Positions 4,545 to 50,418 of a stretch of 64,000 nt of DNA are shown here, in pieces. This DNA comes from an uncultured Candidatus Saccharibacteria bacterium. Lineage in GTDB: Bacteria; Patescibacteriota; Minisyncoccia; Portnoybacterales; UBA2143. The notes beneath the pieces were generated by a model. It saw nothing but the letters and a program-made list of their open reading frames with translations, did not search any database and had not been told where the DNA came from. A program made the translations under genes and the position numbers. The DNA lies in contig CAYPQZ010000008.1 of the NCBI GenBank assembly GCA_964413015.1, positions 111,626 to 175,625 on the forward strand, given 5' to 3'. Every line of letters begins with the position of its first letter. The stretch's first letter is position 1.

Positions 4545-5051
4545 TCATCGCCTTAGCTCGCTACTCACTATGCGCTTGTACGCGAAGTAGGGTATGAGCT
4601 TGAAAATAAGTTCTCGTTTGTTCCATTGCTTGCGAGATCGAACTCGCTCCTGCTTGGAATCGGAGCAAAACCAGGAATCTTCCGGGTATTGCTCGATTTC
4701 CTCGCAAACGCGAACTTCAATTCTCGCTCCGACTTCGCGTACGGCCTGTTGGACATCACGAAGAGCGCGCCAAAGATGCGGCTTGGCAGCTACGACCCAC
4801 AACTCGGTGATTCTGTGACGCTTCGCCCACTGGACGGCTTCTCGGGCAATGCGCAGAGTTGACGGCGGGTTGCCCGGCTTTTCCTCAATATACTCCACTT
4901 GGATCCTCGGCTTGACCCGAATGTCAAGCTGGGTATACACCAGAGCATCGAGCTCACACGCCTTCTCCGAAGCGATTTCGGCGATACGCTGGTTGGACCG
5001 GATTGTCTCCGGTACTCCGAAAGCGAATGCAACAATACCTGTAGTTTTCAA
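4545..5051 (-). CDS. hypothetical protein, compositionally atypical (GC-rich); weak resemblance to DUF218/YdcF-like fold
   Basis: 168 aa, TTG start with AGGAGGT SD. Local GC is clearly above the roughly 35% background. VVAAKPHLWRAL resembles the DUF218 'LVTSxxHMxRA' motif (weak). Confidence 0.35.
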   Translation of the reverse strand: MKTTGIVAFAFGVPETIRSNQRIAEIASEKACELDALVYTQLDIRVKPRIQVEYIEEKPGNPPSTLRIAREAVQWAKRHRITELWVVAAKPHLWRALRDVQQAVREVGARIEVRVCEEIEQYPEDSWFCSDSKQERVRSRKQWNKRELIFKLIPYFAYKRIVSSELRR

Positions 5052-5791: not shown

Positions 5792-7330
5792 CTATATCTC
5801 CCTTTTTTCTCTTTTTTCTTCGTAAATTTCCAGCACATCACCCTTTTCAATCTTTTCGATGCCTTTAAATAAAATACCGCATTCTTGACCCTTGTTAACT
5901 TCTTCAATTTCCTTTTTATCCCTTTGAAGCTGAACTAACTTACCCTGCCCTATTTTTTTATCTGCCCCGCCTGCATCGCCTGGCGAAGCACTGCGGGTAG
6001 GCCGAATAATATCAATTAAGGTTCCTTGCTTAATTTGTCCTTTAATTACTTTCCCGCCTACAATTTGCCTGTCCTTTTCAGTTCGGAACAAAGCCATAAC
6101 CTTAAGCTGCCCGAGGATGTTTTTTGAAATTTCCGGCGTCAGTAATTTAGAAAGCAACTCTCTGACTCCTTGGATAAGTTCATAAATTATATCAAAAAGC
6201 AGCATTTTTACTTTTTTATGCTGGGCTAATTGACGGATAGTTAAACTGGCTTTTACGCGAAAGCCAATTATTTTTGCCTTGGAAGATTCAGCCAGTTTGA
6301 TATCTGATTCGTTAATGTCTCCGACTTCAGCTTTCAAAATCCTTAAAATGACTTCGTCCACAGGAATGCTTTTAAGCGAAGCTCTAATTGCTTCCAAGGA
6401 ACCTCGGACGTCGGATTTGAGGATAATATTAAGAATTTTTTTATCCGGTTCAAAAACGAAAACTTCTTTTTCTTCTTTTCTCTTAGCGGCTTTCCGCTCG
6501 GCTTTAACTCGGGCTAATTCCAAGCTTTCAAAAGTGTAGAATTTTTCTCCTACTTGAGGAACCTGATTAAAGCCGGTAACGATAGCCGGAGTTGAAGCAA
6601 GGGCCTTTTCAATCGGAGAAAACCGGAAATCTTCCATAGTTTTGATTTTTCCAATAGCCGAACCGGTGCCAATAATATCCTGATTGCTTAAAATTCCTTG
6701 CTTTACCAAAAGAGTTGCCGTGGCGCCTCTTTTGTTATTCTGGTGAGACTCAATAACCAACCCTGAAGCTGGCTGGGATAAATCGCCTTTCAATTCTTCC
6801 ATTTCGGCTACCAGAAGGATTATCTCTAAAAGCTCGTCAATCCCTTGCTTAGTTTTGGCCGATACGTTAATTGAAGGAATCTGGCCTCCCAATGATTCCA
6901 CGCTGAGATTGTTTTTAGACAATTCTTCTTTGACCCGTTCCGGCTGGGCTTCTTTCTTATCAATCTTATTTAAAGCGACAATTGCCGGCAAGCCGCTTTT
7001 TTTAATATGTTCAATAGCTTCTTTGGTTTGCGGTTTGACTCCTTCTTCGGCGGCCACTACCAGAACGGCGATATCGGCCACTTTGGCTCCCCGCGAACGC
7101 ATAGCCGAAAAGGCTTCATGCCCGGGAGTGTCAATGAAGGTGATTTTTTTGCCCTGATGTTCTACCTGATAGGCGCCGATATGTTGGGTAATCCCGCCTG
7201 ATTCCCGGGCGGTAATTTTCAAATCTTTAATCGCTTCCAGAATTGAAGACTTGCCGTGGTCGACGTGGCCTAAAATAACCACCACCGGTGGTCGTACCTG
7301 AATATTCTTTTGTTCCTTCTCTTCTGTCAT
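5792..7330 (-). CDS. infB: translation initiation factor IF-2 (short form)
   Basis: GHVDHGKSS, DTPGHEAF, NKIDK G-domain motifs. 512 aa without the N-terminal extension. Confidence 0.9.
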   Translation of the reverse strand: MTEEKEQKNIQVRPPVVVILGHVDHGKSSILEAIKDLKITARESGGITQHIGAYQVEHQGKKITFIDTPGHEAFSAMRSRGAKVADIAVLVVAAEEGVKPQTKEAIEHIKKSGLPAIVALNKIDKKEAQPERVKEELSKNNLSVESLGGQIPSINVSAKTKQGIDELLEIILLVAEMEELKGDLSQPASGLVIESHQNNKRGATATLLVKQGILSNQDIIGTGSAIGKIKTMEDFRFSPIEKALASTPAIVTGFNQVPQVGEKFYTFESLELARVKAERKAAKRKEEKEVFVFEPDKKILNIILKSDVRGSLEAIRASLKSIPVDEVILRILKAEVGDINESDIKLAESSKAKIIGFRVKASLTIRQLAQHKKVKMLLFDIIYELIQGVRELLSKLLTPEISKNILGQLKVMALFRTEKDRQIVGGKVIKGQIKQGTLIDIIRPTRSASPGDAGGADKKIGQGKLVQLQRDKKEIEEVNKGQECGILFKGIEKIEKGDVLEIYEEKREKREI

Positions 7331-7419
7331 GTATCGCTTAAATTAACATTTTTAACAGCTTTGGTCAAATTGAACTCCATAAAACCAATCGGTTTTTTTA
7401 ACCTTCAATTTTCTTGTAT

Positions 7420-7917
7420 TTATTTTCTGGTTTTTGCGCCGGCCTTTTTTAAGGCCTCTAATTCTTCTTTGGACAGGGGATATTTTGACTGACCGGATTC
7501 AATCGGCTTGCCGTAAATTCGGGTTCCTTCACGGGAGTATAAACTGGAAATAACCAGACCGTTCTTATGGGCATCCAGTAAAGCAATGGCAAAACTCTGA
7601 TTGCCGCCGGTGTCTTTAAAGGGATTGAATCGAACCAAGCCGATTTTTTGAATGCTCTGCCCGGCCATTTTTTTGAGGTTTTTTAATAATTTATCAAGCT
7701 CTTTAATATTTTGCTCTGCTTTCTTAAGATGCTTGATTTCTTCAAAAAGCACCTCTTCCAAATCAGTGGCCTTTTTACCGTTAAAGAAAGTTTTTAATCT
7801 CCTTTTTATGTTCCATAACCGCAGAGAGATAAAAATATTCCAGATCAAAAAGAGGAGGAGAATAAGCAGAAAGAGGTAAGTGATTTGATTGTTAATTAGA
7901 AAATTAGTGATATTCAT
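7420..7917 (-). CDS. DUF4446-family protein
   Basis: N-terminal TM and coiled coil, C-terminal GLVRFNPF...GNQSFAIALLD core. Start moved to ATG 7915-7917 because the longer ORF runs into a tRNA gene. Confidence 0.55.
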   Translation of the reverse strand: MNITNFLINNQITYLFLLILLLFLIWNIFISLRLWNIKRRLKTFFNGKKATDLEEVLFEEIKHLKKAEQNIKELDKLLKNLKKMAGQSIQKIGLVRFNPFKDTGGNQSFAIALLDAHKNGLVISSLYSREGTRIYGKPIESGQSKYPLSKEELEALKKAGAKTRK

Positions 7918-7940
7918 AGAAGATATGACCGCTTTCGCGC

Positions 7941-7986
7941 AGCTACTGGCGGACTTCGTCACGCCGTAGCCACGCTTCAGCGTGGC
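7941..7986 (-). repeat. tRNA-Ser-associated double-hairpin repeat (1 copy)
   Basis: AGCTACTGGCGGACTTCGTCACGCCGTAGCCACGCTTCAGCGTGGC. The same roughly 45-bp unit recurs at 49801-49886 and 50239-50328. Confidence 0.8.
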
Positions 7987-7991
7987 AAAGG

Positions 7992-8078
7992 CGGAGAGGG
8001 TGGGATTCGAACCCACGGTCATCCAAAGACGACAACGGTTTTCGAGACCGTCCCTTTCGTCCGCTCAGGCACCTCTCC
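7992..8078 (-). tRNA. tRNA-Ser (CGA)
   Basis: Acceptor GGAGAGG/CCTCTCC, anticodon loop CU-CGA-AA, long variable arm, T-loop GGTTCGAATCC. Confidence 0.85.
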
Positions 8079-8080
8079 CT

Positions 8081-8323
8081 TTATAATTCTAACTTCTTTT
8101 TTAATTGTCTTCTACCTTGAGATTTTTTATAAAAATTTTCTGTTTTTTGAGCTAATGTTTTTGTCTGGTATGCTTCGTAATAAATTAAATCCCATGGCCT
8201 GAAATTTCTTGTAGATTTTACTTTTCCGAAATTGTGTTCTTTAAGTCTTTTTTCTAGATTACTGGTGCTTCCTCTATACAATTTATTATTTTTTTGGTTT
8301 TTTAGAAGATAAAAATAATACAT
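8081..8323 (-). CDS. GIY-YIG nuclease family protein (YhbQ-like, stand-alone)
   Basis: 80 aa; YYFYLLKNQKNNKLYRGSTSNLEKRLKEH matches the GIY-YIG core (Y..Y....YxG...L..R...H). Ends 2 bp before the tRNA-Ser 5' end. Confidence 0.7.
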   Translation of the reverse strand: MYYFYLLKNQKNNKLYRGSTSNLEKRLKEHNFGKVKSTRNFRPWDLIYYEAYQTKTLAQKTENFYKKSQGRRQLKKKLEL

Positions 8324-8399
8324 GGTTTTTCCGCGACGTCTCCGCTTACGCGGAGCGCGCGGACCCGCTCACTTTGACTTTAGTCAAAGATGAAGCGGG

Positions 8400-8435
8400 C
8401 GAGACCGTCCCTTTCGTCCGCTCAGGCACCTCTCC
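8400..8435 (-). pseudogene. duplicated 5' half (nt 1-35) of tRNA-Ser(CGA)
   Basis: 36/36 identity with 8043-8078 (CGAGACCGTCCCTTTCGTCCGCTCAGGCACCTCTCC). The copy stops inside the anticodon. Two hairpins (8324-8396) follow it. Confidence 0.8.
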
Positions 8436-8452
8436 ATATGTATTTTTTGTTT

Positions 8453-8529
8453 TGGTGGGCGGTGAGGGATTCGAACCCCCGACCTTCTGGGTGTAGACCA
8501 GACGCTCTAACCAGCTGAGCTAACCGCCC
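8453..8529 (-). tRNA. tRNA-Val (TAC), unusual C33
   Basis: Acceptor GGGCGGT/ACCGCCC, anticodon stem TCTGG/CCAGA, loop UC-TAC-AC, CCA encoded. Confidence 0.7.
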
Positions 8530-8650
8530 TTACGAATTTTCTTCAAATTTGTAATTTGGCGAGAAGATTCAACATCCACTTCTGGCGGATAATATCATTA
8601 TCATACCGCTAATCTTTTGAAAAATCCAGTTTTCTTGCTATAATCTGGTT

Positions 8651-10036
8651 ATGTTCGGATTTTTGAGAAAGAAATATTTTGCCCGGCCTTTATCACAGGA
8701 TGCGGGAAGAAGCGACTTTGATCAGACTATAAAGATAGAAAAGAATTTTTGGGACCAGGTTAAAAAAGTTCACTTTATTGGGATCGGTGGAATCGGAGTG
8801 TCAGCGTTGGCCCAAATGGCTCTTTTGCTGGATAAGCAGGTAGTTGGGTCTGATTTATCGTTCGGGCCGGCCTTAAAGAAAATTAAAAAATTAGGCGGTC
8901 AAATTTTTATTGGCCATAGAGAATCGAATCTTAATAAAGACGCAGATATTGTTATTTATTCGCCTGCTGTTAAAAATGACAACTCTGAGTTAATTTTAGC
9001 GAGGAAATTGAATATTCCCGCTTACTCTTATCCTCAAGCGCTGGGCTTAATCTCAAAAGGTAAATACATGCTGGCGGTTTCCGGCGCTCACGGGAAAACT
9101 ACCACTACGGCCATGCTGGCTGAAATTATGATTGCCGAAAAAAAAGAACCTACGGTAGTAATTGGTTCTTTTTTAAACAAACAAAAAGGCAATTTTATTT
9201 TAGGCAAAAGCAAATACTTCATTGTTGAGGCCTGTGAATATCAAGAATCCTTTCTTAATCTTGAACCGGATGTTTTAATAATTACCAATATTGACAACGA
9301 CCATCTTGATTATTACGGGACAATTAAAAAAATTCAGAAGGCCTTTGCTAAATTAATTTCAAAGGTTCCTCGAGATGGATTTGTAGTTTGTAATCCTAAT
9401 GACGAAAAAGTTAAATCGGCCTTATCAATGGCCGACTGCAAAGCAAAAATAGTTGATTATTCAAAAGAAATATCGAATATTGAACTACTGGTTCCTGGCC
9501 GGCATAATATTCTGAATGCCCAAGCCGCTTTGGCGGCGGTTAAAGCAACGGGCGTTAAAGAAGAAAAAGCGCTAGGAGCGCTTAAAAAGTTTTCCGGGAC
9601 TTGGCGCCGTTTTGAATACAAAGGCAAAACTAAAAAAGGCGCTTTGGTTTATGATGATTACGCACATCACCCAACGGAAGTCAAAGCAACTTTAAAAACA
9701 GTTAGAGAAAAATTTCCCGATAAAGAAATTACGGTTGTTTTCCAGCCGCATTTATATTCCAGAACCAAATTTTTATTAGGTGATTTTGCTAAAAGTTTTA
9801 ATCAGGCTGACCGGGCAATTATTACTGACATTTACGCGGCTCGAGAAAAAGACGACGGAAGCATTCACGCTAGAGACTTAGCCGAAGGAATCAGTAAATT
9901 TAATGAGCGTGTTAGATATGTGTCAAGTTTTTCAGAGGTAAAAGAATATTTGAAAAACAAGTTGGGCAAAAACGGCGTTATTATCACTATGGGCGCCGGA
10001 GATGTTTACGAAATCGGCGAGGCGTTAATAAAATAA
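8651..10036 (+). CDS. murC: UDP-N-acetylmuramate--L-alanine ligase
   Basis: HFIGIGGIGVSALA N-terminal motif and GAHGKTTTTAM P-loop; Mur ligase architecture. TTGAAA-16-TATAAT promoter ends 8 nt before the ATG, so the mRNA is probably leaderless. Confidence 0.75.
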   Translation: MFGFLRKKYFARPLSQDAGRSDFDQTIKIEKNFWDQVKKVHFIGIGGIGVSALAQMALLLDKQVVGSDLSFGPALKKIKKLGGQIFIGHRESNLNKDADIVIYSPAVKNDNSELILARKLNIPAYSYPQALGLISKGKYMLAVSGAHGKTTTTAMLAEIMIAEKKEPTVVIGSFLNKQKGNFILGKSKYFIVEACEYQESFLNLEPDVLIITNIDNDHLDYYGTIKKIQKAFAKLISKVPRDGFVVCNPNDEKVKSALSMADCKAKIVDYSKEISNIELLVPGRHNILNAQAALAAVKATGVKEEKALGALKKFSGTWRRFEYKGKTKKGALVYDDYAHHPTEVKATLKTVREKFPDKEITVVFQPHLYSRTKFLLGDFAKSFNQADRAIITDIYAAREKDDGSIHARDLAEGISKFNERVRYVSSFSEVKEYLKNKLGKNGVIITMGAGDVYEIGEALIK

Positions 10037-42008: not shown

Positions 42009-42062
42009 GGCCCCATCGTCTAGCTGCCTCTTCGGCAGCCCACCGATGAGGTGGGTGGTTTT
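42009..42062 (+). pseudogene. duplicated 5' 15 nt of tRNA-Glu followed by two hairpins
   Basis: GGCCCCATCGTCTAG at 42009-42023 equals 42063-42077. Then CTGCCTCTTCGGCAG and CCCACCGATGAGGTGGG hairpins. Confidence 0.6.
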
Positions 42063-42134
42063 GGCCCCATCGTCTAGTGGTTAGGACACCAGGTTTTCAT
42101 CCTGGCAACAGGAGTTCGATTCTCCTTGGGGCTG
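42063..42134 (+). tRNA. tRNA-Glu (TTC)
   Basis: Anticodon loop UU-TTC-AU, T-loop AGTTCGATTCT. Confidence 0.8.
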
Positions 42135-42185
42135 CATGATGAATTGACAAAATAGCACGGATGTGCTATTTTGTTTTGAGAAAAT

Positions 42186-49800: not shown

Positions 49801-49886
49801 ACTGGCGGACTTCGTCACGCCGTAGCCACGCTTCAGCGTAGCTACTGGCGGATTTCGTCACGCCGTAGCCACGCTTCAGCGTGGCG
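49801..49886 (-). repeat. tRNA-Ser-associated double-hairpin repeat (2 tandem copies, first truncated)
   Basis: Same unit as 7941-7986. Confidence 0.8.
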
Positions 49887-49890
49887 AAGG

Positions 49891-49976
49891 CGGAGAGGGT
49901 GGGATTCGAACCCACGGTCGCCTAAGGCGACAGCAGTTTTCAAGACTGCCCGATTAAACCGCTCTCGCACCTCTCC
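49891..49976 (-). tRNA. tRNA-Ser (TGA)
   Basis: Acceptor GGAGAGG, anticodon loop CU-TGA-AA, long variable arm. Confidence 0.85.
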
Positions 49977-49983
49977 AAGAGGA

Positions 49984-50223
49984 TTACAATAAATGTTTTT
50001 TAATAAATGCTCTACTTGAACCGGATTTAAGATATTTTTCGAATTCGTATGCTTTGTATTTATCTTCAGTCGCAAAATAAAAGTTTAGCTTTGCTGGCAA
50101 ACGATTTACTGTTGCTGCTGCATGTCCTTTTTGATGTCGTTGAATTCTATCATTCAAGTCGTCAGTACAGCCTACATAATAGCCATCTTTGCATTTTAAG
50201 CTATAAACGTAATACATAAACAC
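49984..50223 (-). CDS. GIY-YIG nuclease family protein (YhbQ-like), paralog of 8081-8323
   Basis: MFMYYVYSLKCKDGYYVGCTDDLNDRIQRHQ has the GIY-YIG core. Ends 7 bp before the tRNA-Ser(TGA) 5' end. Confidence 0.7.
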   Translation of the reverse strand: MFMYYVYSLKCKDGYYVGCTDDLNDRIQRHQKGHAAATVNRLPAKLNFYFATEDKYKAYEFEKYLKSGSSRAFIKKHLL

Positions 50224-50238
50224 GTACCCGCTTTTGCG

Positions 50239-50328
50239 TAGCTACTGGCGGACTTCGTCACGCCGTAACCACGCTTCAGCGTAGCTACTGGCGGACTTCG
50301 TCACGCCGTAGCCACGCTTCAGCGTGGC
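50239..50328 (-). repeat. tRNA-Ser-associated double-hairpin repeat (2 tandem copies)
   Basis: Two 45-bp units, one with G to A in the loop. Confidence 0.8.
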
Positions 50329-50333
50329 GAAGG

Positions 50334-50418
50334 CGGAGAGGGAGGGATTCGAACCCTCGGTACCCGAAAGTACAACACCTTAGCAGGGTGCCCCATTCGA
50401 CCGCTCTGGCACCTCTCC
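50334..50418 (-). tRNA. tRNA-Ser (GCT)
   Basis: Acceptor GGAGAGG, anticodon loop CU-GCT-AA, long variable arm. Confidence 0.8.

Follow-up and report, generated by a model that had tools for sequence, protein, structure and literature searches.

A tRNA-Ser(CGA) gene in the window, by which we mean the whole 64,000-nucleotide stretch analysed here, carries a 357-bp insertion made of a double hairpin, a six-nucleotide tRNA fragment, an 80-residue GIY-YIG nuclease gene (ORF1) and a replacement for the first 36 nucleotides of the tRNA. Judged from sequence comparisons, this unit is probably selfish DNA of the homing type, a cassette acquired by the lineage in its tRNA-Ser(CGA) gene. Its copy number varies within one population, and it is one of many cassettes alike in build at the tRNA-Ser genes of Patescibacteria, in dozens of genomes.

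Results

Organisation of the tRNA-Ser(CGA) locus

Read along the minus strand, the locus runs from tRNA-Val through a copy of tRNA-Ser nucleotides 1-36, a 70-nt double hairpin, nucleotides 37-42, ORF1 and 2 nt to tRNA-Ser(CGA) (Table 1). The upstream copy covers tRNA nucleotides 1-42 and is split at 36/37 by the hairpins, while the direct repeats generated by the unit measure 36 nt at a spacing of 357. In the ARAGORN model the anticodon occupies linear positions 35-37, and the orphan copy stops past the second anticodon base. A preliminary description, made from the sequence of the window, had correctly set the duplication boundary inside the anticodon and had seen the paired hairpins of about 70 nt (8399-8330), the 80-aa YhbQ-like GIY-YIG frame (8323-8081) and the 2-bp gap between it and the tRNA. 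It also reported the exact 36-nt copy at 8435-8400, although this spans nucleotides 1-36 rather than 1-35, and the complete tRNA-Ser(CGA), which is indeed intact but ends at 7990 instead of 7992. It overlooked B' (nucleotides 37-42), the hairpins as a mobile family, the second GIY-YIG/tRNA-Ser locus and the wide spread of the arrangement.

Its concern that the duplicate might be an assembly artefact can be set aside: identical junctions occur in independent metagenome assemblies, and the anatomy is repeated in dozens of unrelated genomes.

A scan with the sigma-70-type consensus found no promoter-like site between tRNA-Val and ORF1 on the minus strand. Given this result and the 2-nt gap, co-transcription of ORF1 with the tRNAs is plausible; ORF1 would probably be expressed from the tRNA operon transcript, from which RNase P would free the tRNA.

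Table 1. Features of the three tRNA loci in the window, with positions counted from its first letter
Feature	Positions	Strand	Evidence
tRNA-Val(TAC), left neighbour	8453..8529	-	ARAGORN, Rfam
Orphan copy of tRNA-Ser(CGA) nt 1-36, 36/36 identical	8400..8435	-	Repeat search, E=1.4e-13
H, double-hairpin element between tRNA nt 36 and 37	8330..8399	-	Shuffle control, folding
B', aaaacc, tRNA-Ser nt 37-42, abutting the ATG	8324..8329	-	
ORF1, 80-aa single-domain GIY-YIG nuclease (UPF0213/YhbQ/SLX1-like)	8081..8323	-	Pfam
Inserted unit, 357 bp: H, B', ORF1, 2 nt, tRNA nt 1-36	8043..8399	-	
Intact tRNA-Ser(CGA), 2 nt past the ORF1 stop	7990..8078	-	ARAGORN; Rfam tRNA, 56.5 bits
DHE', GC-rich 3'-flank hairpin repeat, single copy	7925..7989	-	
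ORF-less hairpin anatomy at tRNA-Glu	42009..42062	+	
tRNA-Ser(GCT), opening the second locus	50332..50418	-	ARAGORN
DHE' repeat, 2.3 copies, period 43, from tRNA-Ser(GCT) to ORF2	50229..50331	-	
ORF2, second mini GIY-YIG gene, 77 aa from ATG	49984..50217	-	
tRNA-Ser(TGA)	49889..49976	-	ARAGORN
DHE' repeat, 1.9 copies, period 43, past tRNA-Ser(TGA)	49801..49888	-	

Insertion and copy-number variation

Ten syntenic loci of relatives, in which the neighbouring DUF4446 protein is 62-78% identical to that of the window, present an empty site: tRNA-Val is followed after 2-15 nt by an intact tRNA-Ser(CGA), and GIY-YIG gene, hairpin and half-tRNA are all missing from each of the ten. Because tRNA-Val leads directly to an intact tRNA-Ser(CGA) in these relatives, the 357-bp unit is an insertion. 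The preliminary description had pointed to such related tRNA-Ser loci as informative, and all ten lack the insert. More broadly, the GIY-YIG gene is missing from nearly all of the ~47 tRNA-Ser(CGA) loci sampled. Wider gaps between the tRNA genes of five relatives (L105, L141, L148, L149 and L165) were inspected as candidate cassettes and turned out to hold ordinary genes.

The related contig L001, 99.97-100% identical to the window across 6.2 kb, carries two tandem 357-bp units that are one SNP apart, and another, L002, breaks off within the repeat. The copy number of the unit thus varies within one population. Among the cassettes sampled at different loci, nucleotide similarity spans hairpin 1 through the ORF, the divergence being too great to fix the right boundary. 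The presence/absence pattern that marks a free-standing homing endonuclease gene was found across the 10 relatives and again at tRNA-Ser(GCT), where L003 differs from the window and L004.

A minimal GIY-YIG protein

By profile match and catalytic residues, ORF1 is assigned to the GIY-YIG nuclease superfamily. Residues 1-71 match Pfam PF01541 with 64 bits (E=1.4e-17; cut-off 22.6), and Y3, Y5, Y16, G18, R26, H30 and E62 are invariant among 24 aligned homologues, which keeps the active-site set of Tyr (GIY), Tyr and Gly (YIG), Arg, His and the metal-binding Glu. The best match among solved structures was EF2693 (1ywl; E=1e-6, residues 2-74), followed by BH0048 (1zg2; E=2e-4) and then SLX1. Similarity across the entire small protein likewise places it, at the sequence level, with UPF0213/YhbQ. 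Homing GIY-YIG enzymes characterised so far, such as I-TevI and the Seg proteins, require a separate DNA-binding domain for specificity towards a long site; ORF1 has none, with just a short basic tail (QGRRQLKKKL) beyond residues 1-71.

Generic homing-endonuclease profiles matched residues 1-31 (PHROGs) and 5-36 (PADLOC) at E ~1e-4. These matches are weak and N-terminal, no full-length SegB-type homology was found, and a search of IMG/VR found no relatives of the ORF1 family in viral contigs. A phage origin was rejected on these grounds, and a defence system was dropped after PADLOC returned no system match.

Cassettes of the same build at other tRNA genes

The family was surveyed in 84 homologous ORFs from 80 species-representative genomes, with loci searched by a profile from the narrower alignment A2, as the wide A1 had no conserved stretch fit for back-translation. 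A same-strand tRNA starts within ~160 nt past the ORF end in 42 of the 84 homologues, and 38 of these 42 are tRNA-Ser, with anticodons TGA, CGA, GGA and GCT all represented. A perfect double hairpin precedes the ATG by no more than 40 nt, again in 42/84. The recurrent layout is an orphan tRNA piece, a hairpin, a tRNA continuation of 3-8 nt, the ORF and an intact tRNA. All 42 mapped breaks fall in unpaired regions of the cloverleaf (D-loop edges, 21; anticodon loop, 13; T loop, 5; 8/9 linker, 3), and the very position broken in the window recurs at independent loci. In 10/32 cases the sequence of the orphan is not that of the tRNA beside it, and some of these orphans are clearly another tRNA-Ser allele.

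Invasion has been repeated, as deduced from nested or tandem cassettes carrying different ORFs (L015, L023 and L037), from the intermixing of tRNA-Ser anticodon types in the protein tree, from the extra cassette ahead of tRNA-Ser(GCT) in L003, and from the syntenic comF / tRNA-Ser(GCT) / tRNA-Ser(TGA) site, which is occupied by an ORF2-type gene in the window versus an ORF1-type gene in L004.

That second site in the window carries a divergent mini GIY-YIG gene, ORF2, which shares 33% identity with ORF1 and whose end is separated by 7 nt from tRNA-Ser(TGA). It obeys the same layout rule, as does the hairpin at tRNA-Glu, where an orphan of nucleotides 1-14, a 32-nt double hairpin (42023-42055), tggtt (nucleotides 15-19) and 2-3 nt are followed right away by an intact tRNA-Glu(TTC) at 42063-42135. 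Identity within the ORF2 family is 74-86% among the best 120 of 909 matches, an unusual conservation that could reflect a host-beneficial role. Mutual identity among all three of the window's tRNA-Ser genes is 84-86%, 3' flanks included; this identity and the foreign-allele orphans are compatible with co-conversion.

The double hairpins

Element H consists of two back-to-back GC-rich hairpins, CCCGCT..AGCGGG and TCCGCG..CGCGGA. Folded as DNA it reaches -29.5 kcal/mol (z=-7.7), and 0/200 shuffles were as stable; as a chance control, shuffled sequence yields 0.1 such double-hairpin elements. Structural homologues of H show compensatory stem changes. Among perfectly paired 30-nt copies we collected 28 different sequences, in which stem positions 1 and 3 change in pairs; as they were chosen for perfect pairing, they offer no independent test of covariation.

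Loci selected for a GIY-YIG gene contain 100 double hairpins in 339 kb, 47 of which lie directly upstream (within 40 nt) of a GIY-YIG start codon. Control loci of relatives contain 17 in 317 kb, with GIY matches at 2 loci only. Hairpins also occur in frame within a pyruvate kinase gene, and ORF-less arrangements of orphan plus hairpin were found on either side of intact tRNAs.

Hairpin type follows nuclease lineage, ORF1 going with H and ORF2 with DHE'. The downstream repeat noted at tRNA-Ser(CGA) in the preliminary description is real, and it recurs behind tRNA-Ser(GCT) and tRNA-Ser(TGA). Among relatives this DHE' 3' flank is present in L091 and absent from L160, L090, L093, L094 and L111, and DHE' joins tRNA-Ser to an ORF2-type GIY-YIG gene in other genomes. 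Multiple copies in many genomes, presence or absence at orthologous sites, and a structure that is kept while the sequence varies indicate that the hairpins form a separate family of mobile elements.

Discussion

Patescibacteria have tiny genomes, usually with one gene per tRNA. If the 357-bp unit is a homing-type cassette, the original 5' part of the host gene (nucleotides 1-36, with 37-42 past the hairpin) would have been left upstream as a dead orphan, and the replacement nucleotides 1-36 brought by the cassette would join the original 3' part seamlessly, leaving tRNA-Ser(CGA) intact. We infer that the nuclease breaks tRNA-Ser DNA a few bases beyond the hairpin or loop and that repair then takes a cassette-bearing tRNA-Ser as its template. 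Stretches of tRNA would be the homology arms, and all that lies between them, namely the ORF and a new 5' part for the tRNA, would be carried along. Only an assumed cut at such a distance would account for the constant 3-8-nt tRNA continuation past the hairpin; the resulting direct repeats would permit both tandem amplification and clean loss, and the duplicated tRNA piece would keep the host viable. More speculatively, the double hairpin may be a handle that a domain-poor, SLX1-like nuclease reads by structure, and solo hairpins may be non-autonomous derivatives dependent on that nuclease.

Several observations sit uneasily with a homing cassette. ORF1 is a catalytic domain alone. The intact tRNA copy retains any target that lies within the tRNA, and the donor would be protected only if the hairpin were part of that target. 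The GC-rich hairpin is missing from the cassettes of L004-L007 (that of L004 being ORF1-type), and other hairpins lie in frame in protein genes or have no GIY-YIG gene nearby. The strong conservation of the ORF2 family, too, could speak for a function useful to the host.

Relation to known systems

A full-text literature search found no published description of the hairpin/GIY-YIG/tRNA-Ser cassette layout. The preliminary description had likewise taken the arrangement to be undescribed, but it overlooked a clear analogue, SegB of phage T4, which is the closest known system. SegB is a GIY-YIG enzyme that recognises the T-psi-C motif, cuts inside tRNA genes and spreads with flanking tRNA genes (PMC2330249), and it drives recombination-dependent tandem amplification of the tRNA-plus-segB segment (PMC13096335). 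The likeness lies in a free-standing GIY-YIG gene among tRNA genes (T4/T6) and in a tandem amplification comparable with the two-unit L001 allele. The phage protein, however, has ~220 aa and a DNA-binding part, whereas ORF1 has 80 aa and is chromosomal in Patescibacteria; the similarity is confined to the first ~30 residues, in generic homing-endonuclease profiles, and SegB loci lack the double hairpin, the loop-broken orphan tRNA pieces and the restoring duplication.

UPF0213/YhbQ proteins and SLX1 resemble ORF1 in having the size of one domain and the same catalytic residues. UPF0213 proteins are poorly defined in their biochemistry, and SLX1 requires SLX4. SLX1 is described as structure-specific for branched DNA (PMC8287910), which suggests, by analogy, a way in which a nuclease with no DNA-binding domain could use the hairpin. 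A difference is that linkage of YhbQ genes to tRNA genes or hairpins was not found in the literature.

The mitochondrial genome of the fungus Allomyces offers a further parallel. In its atp6 gene, an inserted GIY-YIG ORF reportedly supplied a substitute for the gene end, with the native end surviving as a remnant; the orphan 5' tRNA piece mirrors this arrangement. Double-hairpin elements of these mitochondria are described as short and GC-rich, with two adjacent hairpins and evidence of mobility (Paquin et al. 2000, via PMC3787672). The likeness is one of description, and the setting differs in being mitochondrial, with a protein gene as target and no fixed hairpin-ORF unit known. Closer in taxonomy, rRNA genes of CPR bacteria contain insertions that encode GIY-YIG proteins, do not belong to the group I or group II introns and sit mostly at the tops or bases of stem-loops (PMC11270868). 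Compared by description, they share the phylum, the non-intron GIY-YIG insertion and a structured RNA gene as target, but the target is rRNA instead of tRNA, and a hairpin partner and restoring duplication are unreported.

Alternative explanations

The double hairpin could be an independent, MITE-like invader of tRNA loops that some other enzyme moves, the GIY-YIG gene being a hitchhiker that lies ahead of tRNA-Ser genes by chance and is co-copied when the damage is patched from an intact tRNA-Ser. Hairpins that stand apart from any GIY-YIG gene favour this reading, as at the tRNA-Glu locus of the window, among the control loci (just 2 of which have GIY matches), within the pyruvate kinase gene and in the ORF-less arrangements beside intact tRNAs, and so does the hairpin-free ORF1-type cassette of L004. 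We nevertheless regard it as unlikely: the share of hairpins placed just ahead of a GIY-YIG start is far above what a passive hitchhiker predicts, each of the two nuclease lineages has its cognate hairpin type, the clade of homologues that is free of hairpins is also free of tRNA linkage, and no alternative candidate enzyme is linked to the hairpins. The direct repeats flanking the unit would also be expected after Campbell-type integration of a small element that moves as a circle, with the tRNA 5' part as attachment site, a recombinase encoded elsewhere and the GIY-YIG gene as cargo. The tandem units of L001 fit such an element, as does L076, in which a cargo gene lies between two hairpin-bearing tRNA pieces. 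Integrase islands and prophages similarly enter a tRNA gene, carry a restoring tRNA segment and are flanked by tRNA direct repeats. They use tyrosine or serine integrases, classically duplicate the 3' part of the tRNA and extend over kilobases, whereas here no integrase or recombinase gene was found within or beside any cassette examined, it is the 5' part that is duplicated and the unit measures just 357 bp. Repeat length, moreover, ranges across cassettes from 8 to ~74 nt and tracks hairpin position, in contrast to a fixed attachment core, and a circular element is very unlikely.

The preliminary description had offered two readings. One was a functional module, in which a nuclease co-transcribed with tRNA-Ser acts on its precursor. 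Such a nuclease might process or regulate the precursor or the gene, with the half-tRNA and hairpins as a regulatory leader. The tight ORF-tRNA spacing and the promoter scan agree with this module, and so do a tRNA-Ser linkage kept across many genomes and the high conservation of ORF2-type proteins. It is extremely unlikely all the same, given a gene that is absent from the syntenic site in 10/10 closest relatives and polymorphic in copy number, cassettes that are nested or tandem, and orphan pieces derived from foreign alleles; to our knowledge, all GIY-YIG families characterised so far are nucleases of DNA. The other, a scar left in the anticodon loop by a GIY-YIG element and resolved by duplication, is borne out by the empty sites, the copy-number variation and the recurrent break position. 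An intron-like structure, which had also been suggested, or the remnant of a group I, group II or degenerate intron, would suit a break within the anticodon, and Patescibacteria tRNA-Asn is known to harbour endonuclease-encoding group I introns at 35/36 (PMC13011429). This explanation is essentially refuted: a permissive Rfam search of 7000-9500 returned the two tRNAs and weak chance matches, with no ribozyme core or family, the non-coding part amounts to 76 nt only, a complete tRNA follows the ORF in place of a 3' half, and the same cassette type occurs in D loops, T loops and tRNA 3' ends.

Wider meaning

Beyond the homing cassette of this locus, we tentatively entertain the possibility that mini GIY-YIG nucleases and their cognate double hairpins form an unrecognised class of bacterial mobile elements, in which a structure-reading nuclease cuts nearby and drives hairpins, or hairpin-plus-ORF units, into single-stranded tRNA loops. 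The palindromic hairpin, or a cloverleaf extruded by the tRNA gene, would be recognised by structure and cut a few bases outside; rRNA genes might possibly also be targets. Repair would duplicate part of the tRNA so that the host survives, in effect a 'cleave and rescue' drive of natural origin with tRNA-Ser at its centre, and solo hairpins, including the in-frame copies in protein genes, would be non-autonomous derivatives.

In Patescibacteria the tRNA-Ser genes emerge as a hotspot of a small, probably selfish cassette that would break the gene in a loop and mend it at once. If the proposed homing mechanism is right, an 80-residue GIY-YIG domain would be a mobility enzyme that has no DNA-binding domain and probably reads DNA structure, and the cassettes would provide a natural case, from outside phages, of a nuclease that drives tRNA genes to amplify in tandem. 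They would explain many of the 'GIY-YIG nuclease family protein' annotations in Patescibacteria genomes, as well as two features that hamper tRNA annotation and cause assemblies to break, orphan tRNA fragments and GC-rich palindromes, and may connect with the non-intron GIY-YIG insertions of CPR rRNA genes. The compact pair of nuclease and hairpin would, moreover, be open to direct testing.

An inserted GIY-YIG cassette at tRNA-Ser(CGA)

The 64-kb window (39% GC) contains 18 tRNA genes, several in tight clusters, and its homologous loci suggest that it comes from Patescibacteria. At tRNA-Ser(CGA), the arrangement reported in the preliminary description, a half-tRNA copy followed by hairpins, a GIY-YIG ORF (ORF1), a 2-nt gap and the complete tRNA, was confirmed, the copy corresponding exactly to nt 1–36. 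As ARAGORN places the anticodon at linear positions 35–37, the copy ends past the second anticodon base; besides a fragment at tRNA-Glu, the window has no other sizeable tRNA fragment of this kind. The six bases following the hairpins are nt 37–42, so the hairpins interrupt an upstream piece of nt 1–42 at 36/37. As DNA, the hairpin segment has a folding energy of −29.5 kcal/mol (z=−7.7 versus shuffled sequence), and a scan of the whole window for adjacent GC-rich stem pairs returned one non-coding element, compared with 0.1 in shuffled sequence. The scan also caught two adjoining long inverted repeats at 4631–4740, within an ORF (4545–5051), which are probably due to chance or related to coding.

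ORF1 consists of a GIY-YIG domain and no other domain (Pfam E=1.4e-17). Its nearest relatives of solved structure are UPF0213/YhbQ-type proteins, followed by SLX1, and its catalytic residues are intact (Y3, Y5, Y16, G18, R26, H30 and E62, invariant among aligned homologues). No sigma-70-type promoter-like site for ORF1 was found on the minus strand at the locus; given this and the 2-nt gap, ORF1 is probably expressed as part of the tRNA transcript.

Features of the three cassette-related loci in the window
Feature	Position	Strand	Remarks
tRNA-Val(TAC)	8529-8453	-	followed by 17-nt spacer
Exact copy of tRNA-Ser(CGA) nt 1-36	8435-8400	-	
GC-rich segment, 70 nt	8399-8330	-	two back-to-back hairpins
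aaaacc (tRNA-Ser(CGA) nt 37-42)	8329-8324	-	
ORF1, 80 codons	8323-8081	-	followed by 2-nt gap
tRNA-Ser(CGA), intact	8078-7990	-	ARAGORN
GC-rich hairpin repeat 3' of tRNA-Ser(CGA)	7989 to about 7925	-	followed by DUF4446 gene start
ORF-less case	42009-42135	+	orphan nt 1-14, 32-nt double hairpin, tggtt (nt 15-19), 2-3 nt, tRNA-Glu(TTC)
tRNA-Glu(TTC), intact	42063-42135	+	
tRNA-Ser(GCT)	50418-50332	-	
ORF2, second mini GIY-YIG gene	50217-49984	-	33% identical to ORF1
tRNA-Ser(TGA)	49976-49889	-	

Eighty related metagenome loci were fetched via the neighbouring DUF4446 protein (L-numbers denote loci from other assemblies or genomes). The ten closest ones showing the upstream region (L090–L094, L101, L103, L111, L112 and L160; DUF4446 protein 62–78% identical) present tRNA-Val, 2–15 nt, an intact tRNA-Ser(CGA) and DUF4446; GIY-YIG gene, hairpin and half-tRNA are absent from all ten syntenic sites. 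Throughout this unselected set, about 47 tRNA-Ser genes are accompanied by essentially no mini GIY-YIG gene. A look-up of the exact ORF1 protein retrieved the same locus in other assemblies. One of them, L001, matches the window at 99.97–100% identity across 6.2 kb, yet carries two tandem 357-bp units (half-tRNA, hairpins and ORF), differing from each other at one base, while the sequence of L002 stops inside the unit. The empty relatives and the two-unit L001 indicate that 357 bp were gained in the lineage of the window and that copy number varies within one population. The earlier reading of a GIY-YIG element inserted in the tRNA anticodon loop, with duplication, was essentially right. An assembly artefact, the doubt attached to the duplicate, is ruled out by the recurrence of the locus, with the unit present twice in L001.

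A second locus and a family linked to tRNA-Ser

ORF2 belongs to a locus spanning 49801–50418 (minus strand), where it is preceded by 2.3 copies of a 43-nt hairpin repeat, DHE'. This repeat also lies 3' of tRNA-Ser(TGA) and tRNA-Ser(CGA), and hence after all three tRNA-Ser genes of the window. Together with their 3' flanks these genes are 84–86% identical, which mutual recombination between the loci would lead one to expect. At the tRNA-Ser(CGA) site the presence of DHE' varies: the L091 copy is about 90% identical to that of the window, and L160, L090, L093, L094 and L111 have none. The ORF2 family comprises 909 matches, the best 120 of which are 74–86% identical, a high conservation that could reflect host benefit. 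Elsewhere, the context is tRNA-Ser(GCT or GGA), the same hairpin repeat and ORF2, with or without a further tRNA-Ser. The general rule is that a mini GIY-YIG gene follows a double hairpin, which in turn follows a tRNA or its 5' piece; where the hairpin sits at the tRNA 3' end, a restoring copy is unneeded.

A word-indexed search detected 49 homologues of the ORF1 protein, and a profile scan in which each species was represented by one genome gave 491 loci, of which the best 80 were fetched (mostly Patescibacteria by assembly naming, with a minority named as other groups). Census counts refer to 84 ORFs, leaving out the redundant metagenome loci L001–L009. Half of these ORFs (42/84) have a same-strand tRNA starting from 20 nt before to 160 nt after the aligned ORF end, and 38 of the 42 linked tRNAs are tRNA-Ser (anticodons TGA, CGA, GGA and GCT; the others are Tyr, Cys, Gln and Gly). 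By our estimate, considering the few tRNA-Ser genes of a roughly 1-Mb genome, chance adjacency to tRNA-Ser would affect about one in a few thousand genes. A perfect double hairpin ends ≤40 nt from the ATG in 42/84 ORFs; conversely, 47 of the 100 double hairpins in all 89 loci (339 kb) lie ≤40 nt upstream of a GIY-YIG ATG. Hairpin density is lower in control relatives (17 in 317 kb).

About 35 remoter homologues (87–88 aa) form a separate clade with neither tRNA nor hairpin. In these loci (within L029–L089), a conserved motif, ..ccc[cg]gtagtgaaattt.., occurs in the ~30 nt before the ATG and may be a different leader or target. In L162, from a relative of the window lineage, a homologue (1424–1743) precedes tRNA-Arg(CCT) by about 50 nt, so the cassette type is not strictly confined to tRNA-Ser; double hairpins are found there at 1342–1384 and 1833–1881. 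A 225-aa ORF between tRNA-Arg(CCT) and tRNA-Ala(GGC) in L151 (1534–2211), where these tRNAs are neighbours in other relatives, may be another endonuclease-type insertion.

Stereotyped anatomy and signs of repeated movement

The order of elements is stereotyped: an orphan tRNA 5' piece, a double hairpin, 3–8 further tRNA bases (mode 5–6, once 14), a short spacer, the ORF from its ATG, 0–15 nt and the intact tRNA. Exact copies of nt 1–36 or 1–37 recur in L012, L015, L016, L018 and L024, and other loci are broken after nt 8, 12–14, 17 or 20–21, or in the T loop. None of the 42 breaks mapped on tRNAs interrupts a paired part of the cloverleaf; the anticodon loop accounts for 13 (almost invariably following T-Y-G), the edges of the D loop for 21, the T loop for 5 and the 8/9 linker for 3. 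A mirror-image layout, consisting of spacer, 5–9 tRNA bases, hairpin and the remaining 3' part, follows intact tRNAs in L080, L024, L025, L017, L026 and L076. The same hairpin occurs twice in L076 (1930–3232), in tRNA-Ser(GCT) pieces broken at 12/13. Enclosed by the two copies are a GIY-YIG gene, a complete tRNA-Ser(GCT) and a gene of unassigned function of about 0.9 kb, a configuration suggestive of a larger duplication or integration with hairpin-bearing tRNA pieces at its ends.

Hairpin length varies between 30 nt and >100 nt; TCAGCCCGAGGCTGA TCCGCCTTGGGCGGA is typical of the 30-nt form. From locus to locus the stems vary through paired changes (for example, CCCGCT/AGCGGG, TCCGCT/AGCGGA and CCAGCT/AGCTGG), with the initial C and the GCC core retained. 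Solo hairpins occur in orphan pieces of other tRNAs, as at tRNA-Glu in the window, where the hairpin without ORF (CTGCCTCTTCGGCAG CCCACCGATGAGGTGGG) resembles that of the tRNA-Gln cassette in L084, and in-frame in the pyruvate kinase gene of L008. The latter carries two 30-nt double hairpins (678–707 and 1046–1075), each a multiple of three bases, so that the frame is kept; they recall palindromic elements inserted in protein genes.

Several signs point to repeated movement. Nested or tandem cassettes with differing ORFs are present in L015, L023 and L037, and in L015 a younger half-tRNA/hairpin/ORF unit separates an older ORF from the tRNA. In a rough protein tree, the Ser anticodon types are intermixed. 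The conserved site comF/tRNA-Ser(GCT)/tRNA-Ser(TGA)/tRNA-Arg/recG holds an ORF2-type gene in the window, an ORF1-type gene (73% identical to ORF1) in L004, and an extra cassette before tRNA-Ser(GCT), with a T-loop break, in L003. The orphan matches the adjacent tRNA exactly in 22/32 loci and differs from it in 10/32; the orphans of L011, L042, L065 and L067 clearly derive from the 5' part of a different tRNA-Ser allele, indicating that tRNA material from elsewhere takes part.

Discussion

The layout is most likely explained by a scheme in which the nuclease would cut tRNA-Ser DNA just beyond the hairpin or loop, a few bases away. The end with the tRNA 3' part would invade an intact tRNA-Ser having the ORF upstream, and copying would run leftwards, first over the tRNA 5' part and then over the ORF. 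The opposite end would retain everything as far as the cut, namely its original 5' piece, the hairpin and a few tRNA bases, and would be joined via hairpin/orphan homology or illegitimately. The predicted product is the observed layout, down to the constant 3–8 nt behind the hairpin and the spacer of variable length ahead of the ATG. A working tRNA would stay with the host, and the direct repeats would then allow amplification, as in L001, or clean loss. Given that the nuclease lacks a DNA-binding domain and counts the structure-specific SLX1 among its relatives, we speculate that the palindromic hairpin is its recognition target. The scheme has weak points: the intact tRNA copy would not obviously be immune to re-cutting, both hairpin-less cassettes and hairpins without a gene exist, and a benefit to the host could underlie the strong conservation of ORF2-type proteins.

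We place the cassettes with free-standing GIY-YIG homing-type elements at tRNA genes; it is possible, and we suggest it tentatively, that nuclease and hairpin together make up a mobile element class of their own. The solo hairpins would also fit a hairpin that invades independently with the nuclease gene as a hitchhiker, which is rather unlikely in view of the tight hairpin–ATG linkage in two separate protein lineages. Flanking repeats are what a circle-integrating mini-element using a recombinase supplied in trans would leave, but no integrase was found in or next to the cassettes and repeat length is not fixed, making such an origin improbable. The sporadic distribution contradicts the module acting on the tRNA-Ser precursor envisaged in the preliminary description, and a dedicated tRNA-processing role seems highly improbable. 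With an Rfam search of 7000–9500 negative for introns and a full tRNA downstream of the ORF, an intron or intron remnant can hardly be involved.

Rickettsia palindromic elements and the transposition of tRNA introns in Thermoproteales are further cases for comparison, and in Allomyces atp6 an endonuclease ORF reportedly brought a replacement gene end. The closest known system to the tRNA-Ser cassette is SegB of T4/T6, a free-standing GIY-YIG endonuclease in a phage tRNA cluster that recognises the T-psi-C motif, cleaves within tRNA genes and is spread together with them (PMC2330249), and that also drives recombination-dependent tandem amplification of the tRNA-plus-segB segment (PMC13096335). 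ORF1 is not a member of the SegB family, its match to generic homing-endonuclease profiles is limited to the first ~30 residues, and it lacks a DNA-binding domain; no relatives of ORF1 were found in viral contigs. In CPR rRNA genes, non-intron insertions at the tops or bases of stem-loops encode GIY-YIG proteins (PMC11270868) and may represent this phenomenon in a different RNA gene. Double-hairpin elements of fungal mitochondria, as cited in PMC3787672, offer a structural analogue. A survey of tRNA introns in Patescibacteria mentions neither tRNA-Ser, hairpins nor GIY-YIG (PMC13011429), and we found no description of the arrangement in the full texts searched, the coverage of which is incomplete, making a prior description possible. 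The hairpin-led mini GIY-YIG cassettes at tRNA-Ser genes constitute a widespread family that appears to be undescribed.
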